Origin: a virus
Taxonomy: Duplodnaviria; Caudoviricetes
Virus record (IMG/VR): IMGVR_UViG_3300047539_000071
Coordinates: 2,372 to 66,371 of that record
DNA length: 64,000 nt
Strand: one strand, 5' to 3'
A program made the position numbers and the translations under genes. This document shows positions 26,032 through 50,969 of this stretch, piece by piece. The notes beneath the pieces were generated by a model. The model ran no database searches, was not told where the DNA came from, and saw nothing but the letters and a program-made list of their open reading frames with translations. Positions within the stretch are counted from its first letter, which is position 1. The number at the start of each line of letters is the position of its first letter.

Positions 26032-26352
26032 ATGTCCAAGAATGATCCGACCGGCAAACAGCACTACGATGTAACCACGACTTCCTCGCAGAAGCACGGC
26101 AAAGGCACGGAGAAACAGGATCAGACGGGCTCATCGTCTTCCGCAGATTTCACCCCGAAGACTCCCTCCGGTTTCTTAGGCGGGCTCAAAGGTGTTCTGT
26201 CCGATCACTCTCTCAACGCATCTGACTCAAGAAGTTTCGCGACGGGTGGCGCGGGAACTTCCGCAAAGACTCAGTCCAGCCGACCGGGCGTGGGTGGCGG
26301 AAACGCCGGCAAGCCGACTAAGAATTCTGGCGCGACCAGTTTCGGAGCGTAA
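26032..26352 (+). CDS. Gly/Ser/Lys-rich disordered protein
   Basis: AGGAG RBS; low complexity. Confidence 0.6.
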   Translation: MSKNDPTGKQHYDVTTTSSQKHGKGTEKQDQTGSSSSADFTPKTPSGFLGGLKGVLSDHSLNASDSRSFATGGAGTSAKTQSSRPGVGGGNAGKPTKNSGATSFGA

Positions 26353-35802: not shown

Positions 35803-37427
35803 CGAGCGCCGTAATTGGGGTGGTTAAAGACTGTGGATGGGAATACCTTCGCAATTACGCCGTCTCCCTATCCCGCTGCGGATTTGATGGCGACAAGGTT
35901 CTGTTCGTGGACAACATCACAGATGATGCTTTCACGAAACTGCTTGGCCTCGGCTTCACGTTGGTCAACTACAACGCGCCGAAAGATCTGGACGGCAAGA
36001 AGTTCAACTCCTGGGAAGACGGAATGGCCTGGGGCTTCTTTGGCCGCTGGCGCTTTGCTCCGGTGATCGATTGGCTGAAAATGGACTTAACCCCCGGCGG
36101 CCCCGCGCGCATCGATAACTATCGATACATCGTTTGGTGCGACGTGCGGGATGTGATGTTCCAATTGGATCCGATTGAGTGGATGAACGATCAGAGCCCA
36201 ATCGCTCTCGGGCACCTGTACGGCGCAGCGGAGGGTTGCATTATCAAAGACCAACCGCACAACGCGAACTGGGTGCAGCGGACTGCCCCCGCATTGTGGC
36301 ATTGGATGCAGAATGAAGAAGTCCTCTGCTCGGGCACCTTTGCGGGAGATGCCTCTACCATGCTGAAGGTTTTCGAGCATATGTACGGCCTGCATGAGAG
36401 CGTGAAGGATATGGCAGCGTTCGATCAGGGGTTGTGGAACGTGACGGCGCGCACGCACCCATTCAAAACGACCCTTAACATCCCGAAGATGAAGAAAGGT
36501 TTCTGCGCAACGGGCTGGCCGTCGAAGGCTAAAGATTTCAGTCCCTATACGACCGATACGGAACCGGTATGGAATTGGGAGGACATGATTTGCGAAGCCC
36601 CCGAGACCGGCATTCCCTTCGCAATAGTTCATCAATATGATCGCGAACCTCGGTGGCGCGATAAGATCAACGACATTATGAGCGAAAGCGCCCCGGTCGA
36701 ACGGATGCAGCAAATACCGGCGAACCCGATGATCCTTATCGTGTCCTGCGAAGCCTACAGGCACAACGGAATCCAAGACGCTATCCGCAACACATGGGCG
36801 AAAGGTCTGAAGAATTACAAGTTCCTGCTAGGCCACAATTGCCTTGGGACGCCTATTGCTGAGGATGAATTGGTGGTTCTCGCGGACGATGACTACGCGA
36901 GCATCTGCTGGAAACAGCGAGAGGCTTACAAGGCTCTGCTGGCAGAAGGACCGTACACCGGAGGACCGAACTCGAATCCGTACACGCACGTTTTTACGTG
37001 CTGCACAGACACCTATGTAATTCCTGACCGGCTGTGGCAGTGCGGCTATGAGAAGCATGCATACTGCGGATCGGTAGTTCAGCATGCTGCCTCCGTAATG
37101 GGCAACATCCCGTTCGCGCAAGGCGGGGCGGGCTTCTGGCTCAACAGGCGTGCACTTGCGATCCTGGCCAACGACAAGTCCTGCCGGCTGCTTCCACCGG
37201 ACATCTGGGTGAGTTACGTTTTGTCGAAATTCAACATCCCTTGCGCCCACGCTGCGCAGGCGTTCTGGCACGGCTTTCCTGTGCCCGAGCCATTTGAATC
37301 CGACAAGGTCGTCACGATGCACCTATCGCGAGGGACGGGGAAGTACGATCCAGAGTGGATGCTAGACGTTCACGGCGTATTCACCCGAACCGGGAAGCTA
37401 CCCGTACCGGGCCGACAACCACTATAA
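35799..37427 (+). CDS. Two-domain glycosyltransferase (GT-A plus GT31/Fringe-like)
   Basis: DVRDV.FQ, SGTFAG, DQG, VHQYDR; then IRNTW, DDDY, CTDTYV, GGAGF, PDIW. Confidence 0.8.
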   Translation: MTSAVIGVVKDCGWEYLRNYAVSLSRCGFDGDKVLFVDNITDDAFTKLLGLGFTLVNYNAPKDLDGKKFNSWEDGMAWGFFGRWRFAPVIDWLKMDLTPGGPARIDNYRYIVWCDVRDVMFQLDPIEWMNDQSPIALGHLYGAAEGCIIKDQPHNANWVQRTAPALWHWMQNEEVLCSGTFAGDASTMLKVFEHMYGLHESVKDMAAFDQGLWNVTARTHPFKTTLNIPKMKKGFCATGWPSKAKDFSPYTTDTEPVWNWEDMICEAPETGIPFAIVHQYDREPRWRDKINDIMSESAPVERMQQIPANPMILIVSCEAYRHNGIQDAIRNTWAKGLKNYKFLLGHNCLGTPIAEDELVVLADDDYASICWKQREAYKALLAEGPYTGGPNSNPYTHVFTCCTDTYVIPDRLWQCGYEKHAYCGSVVQHAASVMGNIPFAQGGAGFWLNRRALAILANDKSCRLLPPDIWVSYVLSKFNIPCAHAAQAFWHGFPVPEPFESDKVVTMHLSRGTGKYDPEWMLDVHGVFTRTGKLPVPGRQPL

Positions 37428-42146: not shown

Positions 42147-43472
42147 ATGGCAGGAGCAACAGTTTCATCGTTTTCGTCCGCACTCAAGAACGTGTACCTT
42201 CCTGGTATTCGCGAAGAGCTCAACGAGAAGACCAATCTTCTCGACCTCTTCACGGAAGGCGACTTAACCCAATACGAATGGCAAGGTAACCAGCTTGTCT
42301 TCGCTCTTCACTCTTCGCGTAACTACAGCGGCGTCATGTACGTTGCTGAAGGCGGCGCGTTGCCAGTGGCCGGATCTCAGGGAGTTGTAAACCTGAACAT
42401 CCCCATCGCTCACCTTAAGGGACGTATTCAGTTGTCCTACGAAGTGATGCGAGCCTCGCGTTCGGACAAGGGTTCGTTTGTCCGCGCGATGGATCTGGAA
42501 CAGAAGGGTCTCGTGAACGACGTAGCCCGTCAGCGCAACCGTGCGCTCGCCGGCTTCGGTTCGGAAATTCTGGCAGTATCCACCTTGAGCACCTCCGGAG
42601 TCAGCTTCACCGTTGACAACCCGGGCGGGGTTCTGGGAACCACCAACCCCGTCCGCTTCATTAAGGTCGGGATGATCATCGTTAGCCAAGCAGTTGTGGG
42701 CGGCGCTGTTCACGGTGTGGGAACTGTCACGGCTGTGTCCGGTTCGCTCGTTACTGTCGCTGCTGCGATGGGATCGACGTCCGGCGATGTGATCACGCTA
42801 GGAACCACCTCCGTCTCCGCGACGGGCGCCGGCTCCTACGGTCTGAACCCCGGTCCTGATGGGACTGTCGGCGCAGACACCAGCGATATCGCTTCACAGG
42901 GTATTCTGGGCCTGATCGACAACGGAACCTACATTGCGACGATCTTCGGTTTGGGTCGGACTGCCAATGCGTTCTACAACAGCACCGTCATGACGAACGT
43001 CGGAACCATTAACACCGACATTCTTCAGCGCGGCGTGGACAACACTGAGGAAGTAAGCGGCGAGATGATCGACAAGTTCATCTGCCACAGCTCAGTGCGG
43101 CGCGAGATTTCGAAGTTGACGGAAGCCGATCGGCGCTATGCGTCCGATGCAGCTCCGAAGAACTACGACGCCGGTACCCTGGCTGGTGCGAACAAGAAGG
43201 ATCTGACCTACAACGGTTGGTCTTTCCGTACCGACAAGGACTTCGCGTACGGTTGCTTGGCCGGTGTGAACACTTCACACTTGCAGTGGCTGCCAGAAAC
43301 GAAGGGTGAGTGGGCTGAGGATGATGGAACGATTCTTCTGCGCGTTGCCAATGTGGACGCATACGAAGCTCGTTTTCGTGTCAGCGAAAACTTTGCGACT
43401 GACAAAGCGAACGCTCACGTGATGTTTTCCGGCGTCACGGTCAATATTACGTCGGGAGTCTATGCAGATTGA
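42147..43472 (+). CDS. Major capsid protein
   Basis: 441 aa after scaffold; AGGAG RBS; followed by a strong terminator. Confidence 0.88.
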   Translation: MAGATVSSFSSALKNVYLPGIREELNEKTNLLDLFTEGDLTQYEWQGNQLVFALHSSRNYSGVMYVAEGGALPVAGSQGVVNLNIPIAHLKGRIQLSYEVMRASRSDKGSFVRAMDLEQKGLVNDVARQRNRALAGFGSEILAVSTLSTSGVSFTVDNPGGVLGTTNPVRFIKVGMIIVSQAVVGGAVHGVGTVTAVSGSLVTVAAAMGSTSGDVITLGTTSVSATGAGSYGLNPGPDGTVGADTSDIASQGILGLIDNGTYIATIFGLGRTANAFYNSTVMTNVGTINTDILQRGVDNTEEVSGEMIDKFICHSSVRREISKLTEADRRYASDAAPKNYDAGTLAGANKKDLTYNGWSFRTDKDFAYGCLAGVNTSHLQWLPETKGEWAEDDGTILLRVANVDAYEARFRVSENFATDKANAHVMFSGVTVNITSGVYAD

Positions 43473-43497
43473 GCATATTGCTTGAAGTTAACAACTT

Positions 43498-43527
43498 AGG
43501 CCCCTCTTTTGAGGGGCCTTTTCTTTT
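43498..43527 (+). terminator. Intrinsic terminator after MCP
   Basis: AGGCCCCTC-TTTT-GAGGGGCCT followed by a T-rich tail. Confidence 0.85.
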
Positions 43528-43543
43528 GTGTTATATTTAAGGC

Positions 43544-45631: not shown

Positions 45632-46351
45632 ATGAGCATCACACAGGTGACCGGGCAATACCTAATCGACATGGCGAACGATCTGCTCGCCGGATACCAG
45701 AACGGCGTAGACAGCCGTGCCCTCCTTACCTACCTGAATCTTGGTAAGGACGTCATCTGGTCGGTCACAAAAGAACTAAAAGATGAGTATTTCCAGGTCT
45801 TTTCGCAGACCACCATCAGCACTCAGACCAACTATTTTCCGCAACTCGTCATGGGAACCCGGCAGTATACCCTTCCGGAAGATCTTCGGAACATCGACTT
45901 TATCGAAGTCCAATCCCCGACTGGCACGCCGATCGGACGCTTCACTTACGCTGCGGCTAACTCTGCCGAGTTTCGTGCAGAGCGCGAGCAGTCGAATGTT
46001 GCTGGCGGGGCGATGGAGAACGATTACGAATACCTCTACACCATCGCGGGCCGCGACCAGTTTGTCATGGCAAAATATCCGGCGCAACCGTACATTCTGA
46101 TTCTCTGGTACACCTGTTCTATCGCAGACTTTGAAGCCGGCGATATCGTGGACGACATTCTGTTTCCTTTCTCAAAACAGCTCGCTCAATACGCTGCAAA
46201 GGCGACAATGCTTGCCGACCAAGACCCGGGTCAATTCGCAGCGTGGTCTAAAGAGTGGCGCGAGAACATAATCAACATGACCCAAGGAGCCGCAACCCGC
46301 AATGACGCCGATCCGCAGTTTGTCGAAGACTTTGACGGGAGTTGCGACTAA
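45632..46351 (+). CDS. Head-tail adaptor protein
   Basis: Size, position before the nozzle, YTLPED motif. Confidence 0.65.
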   Translation: MSITQVTGQYLIDMANDLLAGYQNGVDSRALLTYLNLGKDVIWSVTKELKDEYFQVFSQTTISTQTNYFPQLVMGTRQYTLPEDLRNIDFIEVQSPTGTPIGRFTYAAANSAEFRAEREQSNVAGGAMENDYEYLYTIAGRDQFVMAKYPAQPYILILWYTCSIADFEAGDIVDDILFPFSKQLAQYAAKATMLADQDPGQFAAWSKEWRENIINMTQGAATRNDADPQFVEDFDGSCD

Positions 46352-49300: not shown

Positions 49301-49620
49301 TCGCGCACGTCTTCCGAAGACTGGAGCTCGAGTTTGACTCAGAAGCTCTGGCAAAGAGCACTTCCATAACTATGTGGCTGGACCCAGTCAACGTAGACAG
49401 CCCTGGTCAGGGCCGCACGTTGAATTTACGGCCCGCGCTCGGTGCCTGTCGCTATACCGCGATGGTAAACGACAATGAGGGCGGTTCGCTCTGTCAGCGC
49501 ATGCTGCTGCAAGTTCAGTCGGTGGCTAACGGGCAGGGCGGCGTAATCCGCGGAATCAAACTGGTCGCCGACGATGCTCCGGGTTTCCTGACGGGTGCGA
49601 ATAGGCCGGGAGGCAACTAA
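46351..49620 (+). CDS. Tail nozzle/stabilisation protein with internal PA14-like insert
   Basis: About 1090 aa, beta-rich, after the adaptor; FIHDDGAFF..YLEIDH insert. Confidence 0.7.
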   Translation: MARKEEQKWNLLGSGQDSYSGQNAQNPATSRLIQSWIVQDDGQLHRELPEPFYAYSGSTSTAQTLPGPICGLYEFDQNNGQGAINRFYFCAARVNSTVGTQNCLFYENVVTSTSSNWIQVASVATLANAPMCVTQENNFFLSDGVSNWLFNGTIWVACGINIPLNPPAINIAIKGNPQVLISNQPIVIADATLASGGVGVYLYANDQSGDFAAGANVMANPTTTSSCTASTSNYIDPSLLFNPPQYNGTTDPSIGPMEWGRLTSTSGGNPFAYYALPYPANNDTSYETVVLTALVIPVEGTYNITFIHDDGAFFGFGQGLTSGAIPTCSDGPTNVPFQGNPPITPVGGFPILFGNNNSGFTAENTTVTFPEADTYYLEIDHRNWNSGPQQCIGFGIVLGSMPAGTTASGNPYLANSSSISGLTSALGRYYWYDNADQTIGVATESSTSPIGSITGPTIAASIDVFQQPGTFNSATTTTVVTGHNSTDSPGPISPDLDGTMAGKLLYLNGVLTGTIANVGHGTTLSLTKAGPPVQTTLANGSVVYEAAYSFIWVGQTTPGAPAAGTSVLISPGANNALAGTIWNVSGFTNSGNNISSAVALSSTDNTITFNNASSIAETHAATATSPGNTLNLTAVALHTVNTARAVICDPRCTHWNIYASESEGSQIGEYLTSVPVTSTSYRDTSAFLDKANNNFLPIFRPVRNDPPVASKLLTVHKVRQFRREESSPNFFTFTANEEVTAGNNGDPAQCLPGADSYTVSDMVNVVSFPDQSARLRALISHMDALYMFSEKQCYPLYGQSVDDFAISQMVTFDLGAAGRFAGTSTPNGLVFGSYDKRAFLYPTSLYSTYLAQGGAAQSALTEIGKPLRNVLKQIPSTRLDEWVSVHYHYGIRDWWVISFPTSTTVDAPQTWVWDFMTKGWFQLQRGFASLQVFEVSEGALVLMGGGVDGNTYVIDDQTGTYTPTGNYPVSTWRPALINFGNEEVAHVFRRLELEFDSEALAKSTSITMWLDPVNVDSPGQGRTLNLRPALGACRYTAMVNDNEGGSLCQRMLLQVQSVANGQGGVIRGIKLVADDAPGFLTGANRPGGN

Positions 49621-50174
49621 TGTCTGTCGGCCAATCAGCACAACCGTTCAGTGCACCACGGCCCCGCTCCGTGCCCACACTAGGACAATCCCAAGATCCG
49701 TCTGTCGTATTTGCGAAGTGGCAATCGCAGATCGCGGCCAATGTGCGCAACGTGGCGCCGCAGGCAACGCCGCAGAATTTCAGCGTGACAAATTCGCCGG
49801 GTACACTTACTCTCAAATGGGGGCAGGTTTTGAACAGCTCCGGAGCAGATGGCTATGAAATCCTCAAGAGCGTCAGCGGTAACTTCAAAACAGATTTGCA
49901 GGTCATTCCTATTGGACACGTCAATCAGACCAGCTACACTGATGCTGTTGGCGGCAGTACCAAATGCAGTTACCGAATCCGTACAACCAGCGGAACGCCT
50001 CAAACTCCTCAGTCTGCTCGGGGGCCAGAATCTGGCGTTGTTGCTCACACTTCACTGGCGACTACAAGCACTGCTACCGGCGTTACCGTCCGCGACCAAG
50101 TGACCACCGACAAAAGCCGGTCCCTCGCACGCCTGGGAAACTACGGCATATTCAAACCCGCGACGAACAGCTAA
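49620..50174 (+). CDS. FN3-like virion protein
   Basis: P.NFSV..LTLKW..YEI..SYTD..YRIR. Confidence 0.6.
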   Translation: MSVGQSAQPFSAPRPRSVPTLGQSQDPSVVFAKWQSQIAANVRNVAPQATPQNFSVTNSPGTLTLKWGQVLNSSGADGYEILKSVSGNFKTDLQVIPIGHVNQTSYTDAVGGSTKCSYRIRTTSGTPQTPQSARGPESGVVAHTSLATTSTATGVTVRDQVTTDKSRSLARLGNYGIFKPATNS

Positions 50175-50192
50175 TATTGGACATGGTACGAT

Positions 50193-50450
50193 GGTGAGGT
50201 AGTCACCGCACATTGCGGGGGTGGCAGCTGGACTGTCACAGAATGTTTCATCTGGGGTTTAGGCCCTGCCCGGTGTTGACTGGAAATGTGAGACCGCCGG
50301 CCCACGAGTTTCTGCGCAAGCAGGAACAGTAAGGCGTGGGAGCGGCCTGTTTAAGCGGCGGCTAGAACGAGGTGCTCCCGCGCCGAACTGACTTCCCATT
50401 CTAACTGATATGATTGATATGCCGCTTCCGCCGATCCGGTCGGAGGAAGC
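50193..50450 (+). ncRNA. Candidate structured leader RNA / RNA switch
   Basis: Extended -10 at 50184-92; nested stems, GCAA tetraloop; RBS-sequestering hairpin at 50424-50450. Confidence 0.5.
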
Positions 50451-50969
50451 ATGCCCTCACCGGCAATCAATCAAGCGCCTACTTTTGCAAACATTCCCTG
50501 CTTCGTCCCTAGCGGCGTTCTCTGGTATACCCAAGATTTAGGAAATCTCTACATCGGCACAGGCGTGTCGGACAATGGAGGAACTCCAGGCGTCAATGAA
50601 ATTGGATCCGGATCTTTCCCCATCATTGAAGCTGGTGCTCAGTCATCTACTCAGACTACTAACCCTACAAACCTCACGCTGGTGGCCGCAGCCTCTGTAA
50701 TGTATAACGTGTCGTTGTACATGGGCACCGCGGGAACGGCTCCAAGCCCGCAGTACGTGGAAACAACACTCTCGTGGACTTCCCCGCTCATCGGTGCAGA
50801 CAGCATCTCAGCAACCCTTTCGCTGTTTAACGGGGCCGCTGTAGTCATGGAAACTTTTCCAATTTTCTGTGTGGCCGCGACCAGCATCACTCTCGGATTC
50901 GCTTATGGAGGAACGGCAACCAATGCGCCTTACAGTTATTCCGCGCGCGTTGTGCAAATGCCTATATAA
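50451..50969 (+). CDS. Tail-associated structural protein
   Basis: N-terminus paralogous to the 63136 gene (LWY.QD.G.L.IGTG). Confidence 0.65.
   Translation: MPSPAINQAPTFANIPCFVPSGVLWYTQDLGNLYIGTGVSDNGGTPGVNEIGSGSFPIIEAGAQSSTQTTNPTNLTLVAAASVMYNVSLYMGTAGTAPSPQYVETTLSWTSPLIGADSISATLSLFNGAAVVMETFPIFCVAATSITLGFAYGGTATNAPYSYSARVVQMPI

Follow-up and report, generated by a model that had tools for sequence, protein, structure and literature searches.

A conserved structured RNA element predicted before a family of small receptor-binding-protein genes in uncultivated phages

Introduction

The late genes of the phage studied here were encoded on the + strand between positions 37355 and 61841 of the window, the whole 64,000-nt stretch of DNA that was analysed, which makes up the greater part of an IMG/VR phage record of 66 kb (96% complete). 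The intergenic gaps within this block did not exceed ~70 nt, save one of 276 nt (50175–50450), which was flanked by an ORF at 49620–50174 and an ORF at 50451–50969. This raised the question of what the sole long gap of the block contains and how its content is related to the neighbouring genes. A preliminary description of the sequence had reported a gap of this length, which was confirmed, and had read it as a candidate RNA switch controlling the translation of a tail gene. The core of that reading, a structured RNA before a tail gene, was borne out. Judged by comparison of related sequences, the gap holds a conserved structured element on the + strand that is tied to the family of the downstream 172-aa gene; the element covaries, and the downstream protein, as modelled, resembles a small fibre tip.

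The gap within the late gene block

The gap was located in a podovirus-like tail module, in which a Pfam SU10-adaptor match (45632–46351) was also found, along with a weak PHROG connector match in a protein of 1092 aa. The gap sequence folded with an MFE z-score of −3.0 relative to shuffled sequences, and none of 200 shuffles folded equally well. No tRNA or tmRNA was found in the gap region, and all three forward frames were interrupted by stop codons. A scan of the gap for intrinsic terminators (a G+C-rich hairpin followed by a U-run) was empty, and no −35 element was detected by scanning for either of its two −10-like boxes. A gap holding simply a terminator or promoter was rejected on these grounds, the −10-only boxes filling just 18 of the 276 nt. 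An RNA of a diversity-generating retroelement (DGR) or retron was also rejected, since an RVT_1 search across the 66-kb record gave no match and thus no reverse transcriptase for either. Elsewhere in the window, a hairpin resembling an intrinsic terminator (GGCCCCTC...GAGGGGCC, then TTTTCTTTTG) was located at 43473–43543, just past a 441-aa ORF (42147–43472), and an AT-rich stretch separated this hairpin from the next gene.

The flanking genes and the cassette site

The downstream gene (50451–50969, + strand) encodes a protein of 172 aa, whose AF2 model (mean pLDDT 88.8) was composed of a small N-terminal domain and a beta-sandwich. The structural matches included TNF/C1q-like and carbohydrate-binding modules, Bdellovibrio fibre tips, the CBD of a cyanophage short tail fibre, parts of lambda gpJ, and viral entries named 'Major tropism determinant N-terminal domain-containing protein', with modest TM-scores of 0.3–0.5. 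The N-terminal 50 aa also start proteins of 400–690 aa, and many proteins of ~170 aa contain the C-terminal domain. Such N- and C-terminal modularity is the pattern of tail fibres, so the label of a tail gene is reasonable, and the product can reasonably be modelled as a small receptor-binding protein resembling a fibre tip. In a 3428-aa protein (P0058), 25 separate stretches matched the C-terminal beta-sandwich, forming a long tandem array.

The upstream gene (49620–50174, + strand) encodes 184 aa with a weak PHROG tail-fibre match. In L002, a 50%-identical relative, a fused tail protein of 358 aa (L002:9066–10142) contained a homologue of this product as its N-terminal half, with 53% identity at residues 6–180. 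The protein was free-standing in the window, and free-standing homologues of 181–185 aa were found in L003–L005 and L258. The latter half of the 358-aa fusion was not similar to the 172-aa protein.

In L003 and L004, the 184-aa homologue stood alone and a 141-aa gene started 20 nt on, with neither a large gap nor a cassette. Compared with these relatives, the window carried an extra cassette composed of the gap, the 172-aa gene, and a 222-aa gene. The layout of L258 was like that of the window, with a 185-aa gene, a 300-nt gap, and genes of 199, 243, and 141 aa. The site right after the 184-aa gene appeared as a cassette hot spot, with no insertion in L003, genes of 172 and 222 aa in the window, and genes of 199 and 243 aa in L258. 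On the contig that carries P0010 (Logan ERR4998608), the gene after a homologue of the 184-aa protein (79% identity) starts beyond a gap of 346 nt and encodes 467 aa with a match to the Pfam domain Ice_binding; this gap may hold a related leader before a different fibre gene.

Distribution of the element

The whole conserved element (50196–50453, + strand) was matched in full length by the covariance model R1 (model positions 1–278 of 278). In a cmsearch, the window scored 206 bits (E ~1e-70), a match that holds by construction since the window row was part of the seed alignment. The element was ~255 nt long in the window and 270–290 nt in its relatives. Full-length copies were found in six independent lineages, represented by the window with L011, L006 with L128, L007, L008–L010, the L258–L267 family, and L278. 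In the five metagenomic lineages other than that of the window, the element immediately preceded homologues of the 172-aa gene. These homologues were 47–49% identical where the whole protein aligned, and only the N-terminal part was shared in L258 and L278; each of the 47–49% homologues was preceded by a gap of 261–306 nt that could be aligned with that of the window.

Nucleotide identity between lineages was 0.61–0.81 for the element versus 0.53–0.67 for the coding sequence, and between L258 and L278 the values were 0.81 and 0.53, respectively. The gene on the upstream side was not constant, since it encoded 184 or 185 aa in the window and L258, had a Pfam GLF match in L009, and was divergent in L257. 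This variability indicates that the element belongs with the downstream gene.

A truncated form, consisting of hairpins H1 and Pb and the CAGAA tail (the 5' module), was located upstream of a 169-aa homologue in L257 and before an unrelated 108-aa ORF in L268, another IMG/VR phage. No element was present upstream of the gene for P0008 (L256), a protein with only the N-terminus in common. The window contained a single element and the L268 record a single 5' module, and an element repeated behind many promoters was rejected on this copy number of one per genome.

Searches beyond these relatives were negative. The preliminary description had recognised no known riboswitch class and had named an Rfam search as a check; its view stood, as none of the 4227 models of Rfam 15 matched anywhere in the window at gathering thresholds or within positions 49900–50700 at E up to 10, and five relatives yielded only a chance-level CsrB match (19 bits against a threshold of 71). 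A nucleotide search of GenBank phages gave no similarity, and scans of IMG/VR with either flanking protein, as single proteins and as alignments, gave no relatives. A scan of metagenomes and genomes with the pattern GGAA..GAGACCGCC..GGCGGC returned ~240 loci, mostly chance occurrences in G+C-rich DNA, and only L128 was real. The Pb+CAGAA pattern gave only chance matches with 1–2 mismatches in 400 genomes of the phylum of genome G001, and R1 found nothing new in 47 further loci.

Several relatives showed features of their own. In L256, a very long and nearly perfect inverted repeat with arms of ~130 nt (L256:2150–2440), called as a 92-aa ORF, lay directly upstream of the gene that has only the N-terminal 50 aa of the 172-aa protein; either an assembly artefact or a genuine hairpin could account for it. 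The contig L261 (1093–1508) read as a palindrome, in which the 199-aa gene and the element's 3' part each occurred twice in opposite orientations; this is most likely an assembly artefact. Downstream of the cassette in L278 (2766–4006), short ORFs matched the Pfam families T2SSE and T2SSF, as fragmented ATPase and platform genes of a secretion or pilus system, which suggests either that the cassette lies in a bacterial chromosome, as part of a prophage remnant, or that the assembly is rich in frameshifts.

Covariation and the supported helices

The model R1 was built from a 10-sequence alignment, and the sequences were then realigned to it. In this alignment, which, being fitted to a model, is biased towards the structure it was fitted to, 82.9% of the cells were paired compared with 77.8% in shuffled alignments, and none of 500 shuffles reached the observed value. 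Sixteen pairs were altered on both sides, a number matched in one of 500 shuffles, and the covariation score was 0.253, against 0.158 for shuffles and 0.035–0.10 when the partners were slid by 1–3 columns. These statistics are thin, as they rest on six independent lineages. Covariation among homologues had also been named as a check in the preliminary description, and the 16 double-sided pairs provided it as compensatory changes in several helices. G.U pairs were formed only in the + strand reading.

Both the MAFFT and the model-based alignments were imperfect at the helices Pf, Pg, Ph, and PeX in some lineages, and an alignment-free duplex test was therefore relied on for them. In this cognate test, the 5' window of each lineage was duplexed with every 3' window, and the number of the 720 partner permutations that equalled or exceeded the cognate pairing was counted. 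Among 150 control window pairs, 9% reached 72/720 or lower, 2.7% reached 9/720 or lower, and none reached 1/720. Taken from sequence comparison, H1, Pb, Pd, Pf, PeX, and Ph are backed by compensatory changes, and Pe is marginal.

Hairpin H1 (50204–50220, + strand) was formed by CACCGCA and TGCGGGG with a conserved A.G mismatch. It was 100% paired, its cognate test gave 2/720, and one double-sided pair occurred in C-G, G-C, and U-A forms. Hairpin Pb (50222–50243, + strand; TGGCAG/CTGTCA) had the loop CNNGA and was followed by an invariant CAGAA. It was also 100% paired, and three of its six pairs were altered on both sides relative to the CGACGA/TCG(T)TCG of other lineages; the cognate count of 120/720 was the lowest possible, since five lineages were identical at Pb. 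Hairpin Pc (50255–50266, + strand; GGGT/GCCC) was weakly supported, with 82.5% pairing and a cognate count of 344/720, which is no signal.

Hairpin Pd (50270–50300, + strand) was formed by CCGGTG and CGCCGG around a 19-nt loop (GGAA...GAGAC), with 100% pairing and a cognate count of 8/720. Four of its six pairs were altered on both sides, giving the forms CCGGTG/CGCCGG, CTGGCG/CGCCAG, TCGGCG/CGCCGA, and CCAACG/CGTTGG. The loop motifs GGAA...GAGAC were missing from L258 and L278, where the central domain had a 13-nt insertion and another Pd loop, which argues against one fixed ligand pocket at this position. Between L264 (1300–1330) and L258, the mini-stem closing a GCAA tetraloop in the Pd loop differed by a change from C-G to T-A (ATGCGCAAGT to ATGTGCAAAT), which is compensatory and affects a mini-hairpin specific to that lineage.

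The arm Pe (50301–06/50335–40, + strand) paired CCCACG with CGTGGG and enclosed the stem Pf (50308–15/50320–27, + strand), in which GTTTCTGC and GCAGGAAC formed 8 bp closed by a GCAA loop. Both pairings had been drawn in the preliminary description and were present in the window, with cognate counts of 28/720 for Pe, which is marginal, and 4/720 for Pf. Two adjacent pairs of Pe were swapped in L007 (CCCGTG/CACGGG), and the Pf loop was of the GNRA type in four of the six lineages. Hairpin Pg (50341–50363, + strand; AGCGGCC/GGCGGCT) carried in its 3' strand the CGGCGG at 50356–61, which was invariant in all lineages. This strand paired imperfectly with a variable 5' strand, its constancy leaves no room for covariation, and the cognate count of 540/720 gave no signal. 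Helix Ph had a cognate count of 9/720.

Other pairings did not survive comparison. A 5'–3' closing helix P0 (GGGAAAG/CTTTCC) was rejected at 672/720. The closing stem proposed earlier (50215–22/50374–81) was likewise abandoned, with 602/720 permutations at least as good as the cognate and an overlap with the covariation-supported 3' strand of H1. Nor did the proposed CCGCCG/CGGCGG arm hold, since CGCCGG at 50295–50300 pairs upstream with CCGGTG at 50270–75 in the fully paired Pd. A pairing of the 5' GGCGAC with GTCGCC was rejected because it was lost in L278, where compensating changes kept PeX.

Two mutually exclusive folds

The long-range helix PeX (50327–43/50374–90, + strand) paired CAGTAAGGCGTGGGAGC with GCTCCCGCGCCGAACTG, enclosed Pg, and excluded Pe. 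It was a helix of 10–15 bp, complementary in every lineage. The duplex energy was −31.4 kcal/mol in the window and −12 to −25 kcal/mol in the other five lineages, in which the sequences differed. The outer-block pairs took the forms GACGAC/GTCGCC, AACGAC/GTCGCT, AACGAA/TTCGTT, and GGCG/CGCC. The cognate count was 1/720, none of the 150 control window pairs was as good, and the pairing probability in the window ensemble was 1.00.

The region can be described by four segments, namely seg1 (Pe 5'), seg2 (Pe 3' and PeX 5'), seg3 (Ph 5'), and seg4 (Ph 3' and PeX 3'). The strands common to Pe+Ph and PeX make the two folds mutually exclusive. The predicted ensembles favoured PeX in the window, L258, L278, and L006 (the GGG of seg2 with seg4, 0.68–1.00) and Pe+Ph in L007 and L008 (the GGG of seg2 with seg1, 0.83–1.00). 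The compensating changes found in both folds provide the best argument for a switch, with Pe only marginal at six lineages.

The ribosome-binding-site hairpin

At the 3' end of the gap, a hairpin (50424–50450, + strand; GCTTCCGCCGA/TCGGAGGAAGC, 50424–34 with 50440–50) buried the GGAGG at 50442–46, the Shine–Dalgarno (SD) sequence of gene 50451. This hairpin, as described before, was present in the window at −17.8 kcal/mol, with an anti-SD:SD pairing probability of 0.80. A hairpin with the same G.A mismatch was found in L258 (−19.4 kcal/mol), L278 (−11.5 kcal/mol), and L006 (−9.2 kcal/mol) at a probability of ~0.8, and it was weak or absent in L007 and L008 (−4.0 and −5.4 kcal/mol), so that four of the six lineages had it. 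These were the same four lineages whose ensembles favoured PeX. The cognate test for this hairpin gave 146/720, which is no signal. The anti-SD block TCCGCCGA (50427–34) beside the SD sequence was near-invariant and was kept in all lineages, followed by T in five of the six and by C in L278; it was among the most conserved blocks of the element. The Rfam thermometer models (ROSE, fourU) did not match the element, and known RNA thermometers are far less stable than a hairpin of −17.8 kcal/mol.

A direct link between the upstream folds and this hairpin had been proposed through GCCGCTT (50421–27) and AAGCGGC (50353–59). The two are exact complements in the window, but the pairing was conserved in only three of the six lineages (the window, L258 with a bulge, and L006), with a cognate count of 64/720. 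The CGGCGG of Pg is complementary to CCGCCG, both being invariant, and their pairing probability in the ensembles was 0.00. The mutually exclusive folds that covariation supports, Pe+Ph against PeX, differ from the pair first put forward. In none of the predicted ensembles did the anti-SD leave the SD for an upstream partner, and no supported pairing was found that joined the choice between Pe+Ph and PeX to the anti-SD.

Promoter-like boxes

The extended −10 noted earlier was present as the box P1 (50184–50192, + strand; TGGTACGAT), a candidate promoter ~11 nt upstream of the conserved RNA. A TAnnnT box occurred at the equivalent place as TATACT in L258, L278, and L006, as TACTAT/TATATA in L007, and as TATAAT in L257, and in most lineages it lay ~7–25 nt upstream of the conserved 5' end. 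A second extended −10-like box, P2 (50406–50414, + strand; TGATATGAT), is a candidate promoter or a conserved single-stranded AU-rich tract. In each of the six lineages, a box of this type (TATAAT, TATACT, or TATGAT) preceded the start codon by ~35–65 nt. P2 could be the real promoter of gene 50451, in which case the structured part would lie outside the mRNA; as a conserved box downstream of the structured domain and ahead of the gene, it keeps the reading as a separate RNA alive.

The heptamer GTACGAT occurred at 37343–49 and 50186–92, both upstream of + strand genes, and the hexamer TACGAT also at 26065 (26064–26070); all three sites were intergenic. GTACGAT may be a phage-specific promoter element.

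Proposed mechanism and alternative explanations

The interpretation that we favour, to which we assign about an even chance, is that of a cis-acting leader RNA gating the receptor-binding-protein gene at 50451. The gap RNA would be the + strand 5' leader of a small receptor-binding-protein cassette, transcribed from the −10-type box at 50184–92. Its architecture would consist of a row of hairpins (H1, Pb, Pd, and Pf), followed by either Pe+Ph or PeX enclosing Pg, and finally by the TCCGCCGA:SD pairing. Acting in cis, the resting fold would bury the ribosome-binding site and keep translation off. A trigger, which might be a protein, a small molecule, co-transcriptional folding, or processing, would refold the leader and expose the site, and the refolding would set the timing or the amount of an accessory tail fibre. 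An RNA of ~255–290 nt with covarying helices and two folds is unusually elaborate for a mere setting of the translation level. A true sensor, in which the accessory receptor-binding protein is made or withheld in response to a metabolite of the host, to a protein of phage or host, or to the infection state, is an unlikely extension of this reading. If it were true, the composition of tail fibres, and hence host range, would be under RNA-level control by a portable cassette of leader and fibre gene in soil phages. Host-range determinants would thereby gain a new regulatory input, and the uncultivated phages of soil and peat a new class of orphan RNA. If it did no more than throttle translation constitutively, the element would still mark a mobile cassette of leader and fibre gene and could aid the annotation of such genes.

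The chief competitor, also unlikely in our estimate, is a stand-alone non-coding RNA (~50196–50390) that starts from the upstream −10 box and ends near PeX/Ph, with the fibre gene expressed from the box at 50406–14 behind a short hairpin leader. It accounts for the conserved −10-like boxes flanking the structured domain in all six lineages and for the occurrence of the 5' module without the remainder in L257 and L268. A U-run (TTTTTC or TTTTCTC) follows the 3' strand of PeX/Ph in L007 and L008, but there is none behind the structure in the window, L258, L278, or L006, and the terminator scan of the gap was empty. Moreover, the element always adjoins and points to the same gene family, and the TCCGCCGA by the SD is highly conserved. 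A strict metabolite or ion riboswitch, with the upstream helices as the aptamer and a ligand picking the fold that exposes or hides the site, is distinctly unlikely. Its multi-helix conserved build, the invariant unpaired CAGAA, CGGCGG, and TCCGCCGA, the mutually exclusive and individually covarying helices, the sequestered SD, and the GNRA loops of Pf in four of the six lineages would all suit a riboswitch. Against this, the helices form a row of hairpins and not a closed junction, with no supported closing helix or junction core (P0 and the closing stem, above), the central domain differs by lineage (the insertion and the other Pd loop of L258 and L278), there is no Rfam relative, and the controlled gene, a structural receptor-binding protein, gives no hint of a ligand.

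Little credence can be given to an element acting at the transcript level, either as a 5' module working on the polymerase or a phage factor in the manner of put- or nut-like antitermination, or on 5'-end stability, or as an RNase III-type processing site formed by PeX+Pg, at which cleavage would free the ribosome-binding site. Sites of the latter type lie between the genes of T7, and PeX+Pg would form a stacked helix of ~20 bp. Likewise, the covarying stem with its fixed loop CNNGA and tail CAGAA is the pattern expected for a contact with a protein or the polymerase, and the 5' module (H1+Pb+CAGAA) stands alone just downstream of −10-like boxes in L257 and L268. However, the element has one copy per phage genome whereas nut, put, and RNase III sites recur, no downstream terminator to override was detected, and the conserved anti-SD block is left unexplained. 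The chance of a non-functional gap, as a decayed gene remnant or as an intron or translational-bypass segment in a once-fused tail-fibre gene, is close to negligible. The flanking ORFs share a reading frame, the product of the upstream ORF corresponds to the first half of the 358-aa protein of L002, and the 184 and 172 aa of the two together come close to the length of that fused homologue. This resemblance is outweighed by a 172-aa protein unlike the second half of the fused protein, by the free-standing and gapless 184-aa protein of several relatives, and by upstream genes that differ or sit on the other strand in relatives, with the element behind the GLF-match gene in L009 and a truncated copy behind the divergent gene in L257. 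Stops occur in all frames, the group I intron model (RF00028) gave no match at E up to 10, and the covariation reflects selection on pairing. The intron, bypass, fused-gene, and coding-remnant readings are refuted for practical purposes by the evidence on the 172-aa protein, the stops, and the covariation.

Comparison with known systems

As a putative cis-acting leader, the element resembles SD-sequestering leaders and translational riboswitches in its covarying 5' leader, its terminal anti-SD:SD hairpin, and the mutually exclusive helices upstream. It differs from translational riboswitches in having neither a closed junction nor a known family, in a choice between Pe+Ph and PeX that has no demonstrable direct connection to the SD hairpin, and in a gene for a phage receptor-binding protein instead of a metabolic or transport gene.

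The lambda nut/boxB and HK022 put sites are promoter-proximal RNA elements of phages. The portable 5' module is like them in its two adjacent stem-loops after a promoter-like box, its conserved loop and tail, and its covarying stem. The element is unlike them in its single copy per genome, its further ~200 nt of structure and anti-SD block, and its lack of a terminator and of apparent sequence similarity. Phage-associated orphan structured RNAs in Rfam include GOLLD, ROOL, and PhotoRC, the last forming leaders of cyanophage psbA. The element shares with them the character of a conserved structured phage RNA of obscure trigger that emerged from comparative metagenomics, but it matches none of the 4227 Rfam models, and its gene association, size, and architecture differ.

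At the level of gene organisation, podoviruses of the SP6/K1-5 type have a split adaptor and separate receptor-binding-protein cassettes. The locus is similar in that an N-terminal anchoring protein (184 aa) is encoded apart from exchangeable small receptor-binding proteins, and the cassette is present or absent among relatives. To our knowledge, no conserved structured leader RNA precedes the exchangeable gene in those systems. Receptor-binding proteins of phages are regulated at the DNA level, by invertible segments, diversity-generating retroelements, and module exchange. A full-text literature search for riboswitches or structured RNAs associated with tail fibres returned nothing relevant, and we know of no conserved structured leader RNA before a tail-fibre gene. 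A structured SD-sequestering leader is of a well-known kind, and the family, its competing-helix architecture, and its link to a mobile cassette appear to be new.
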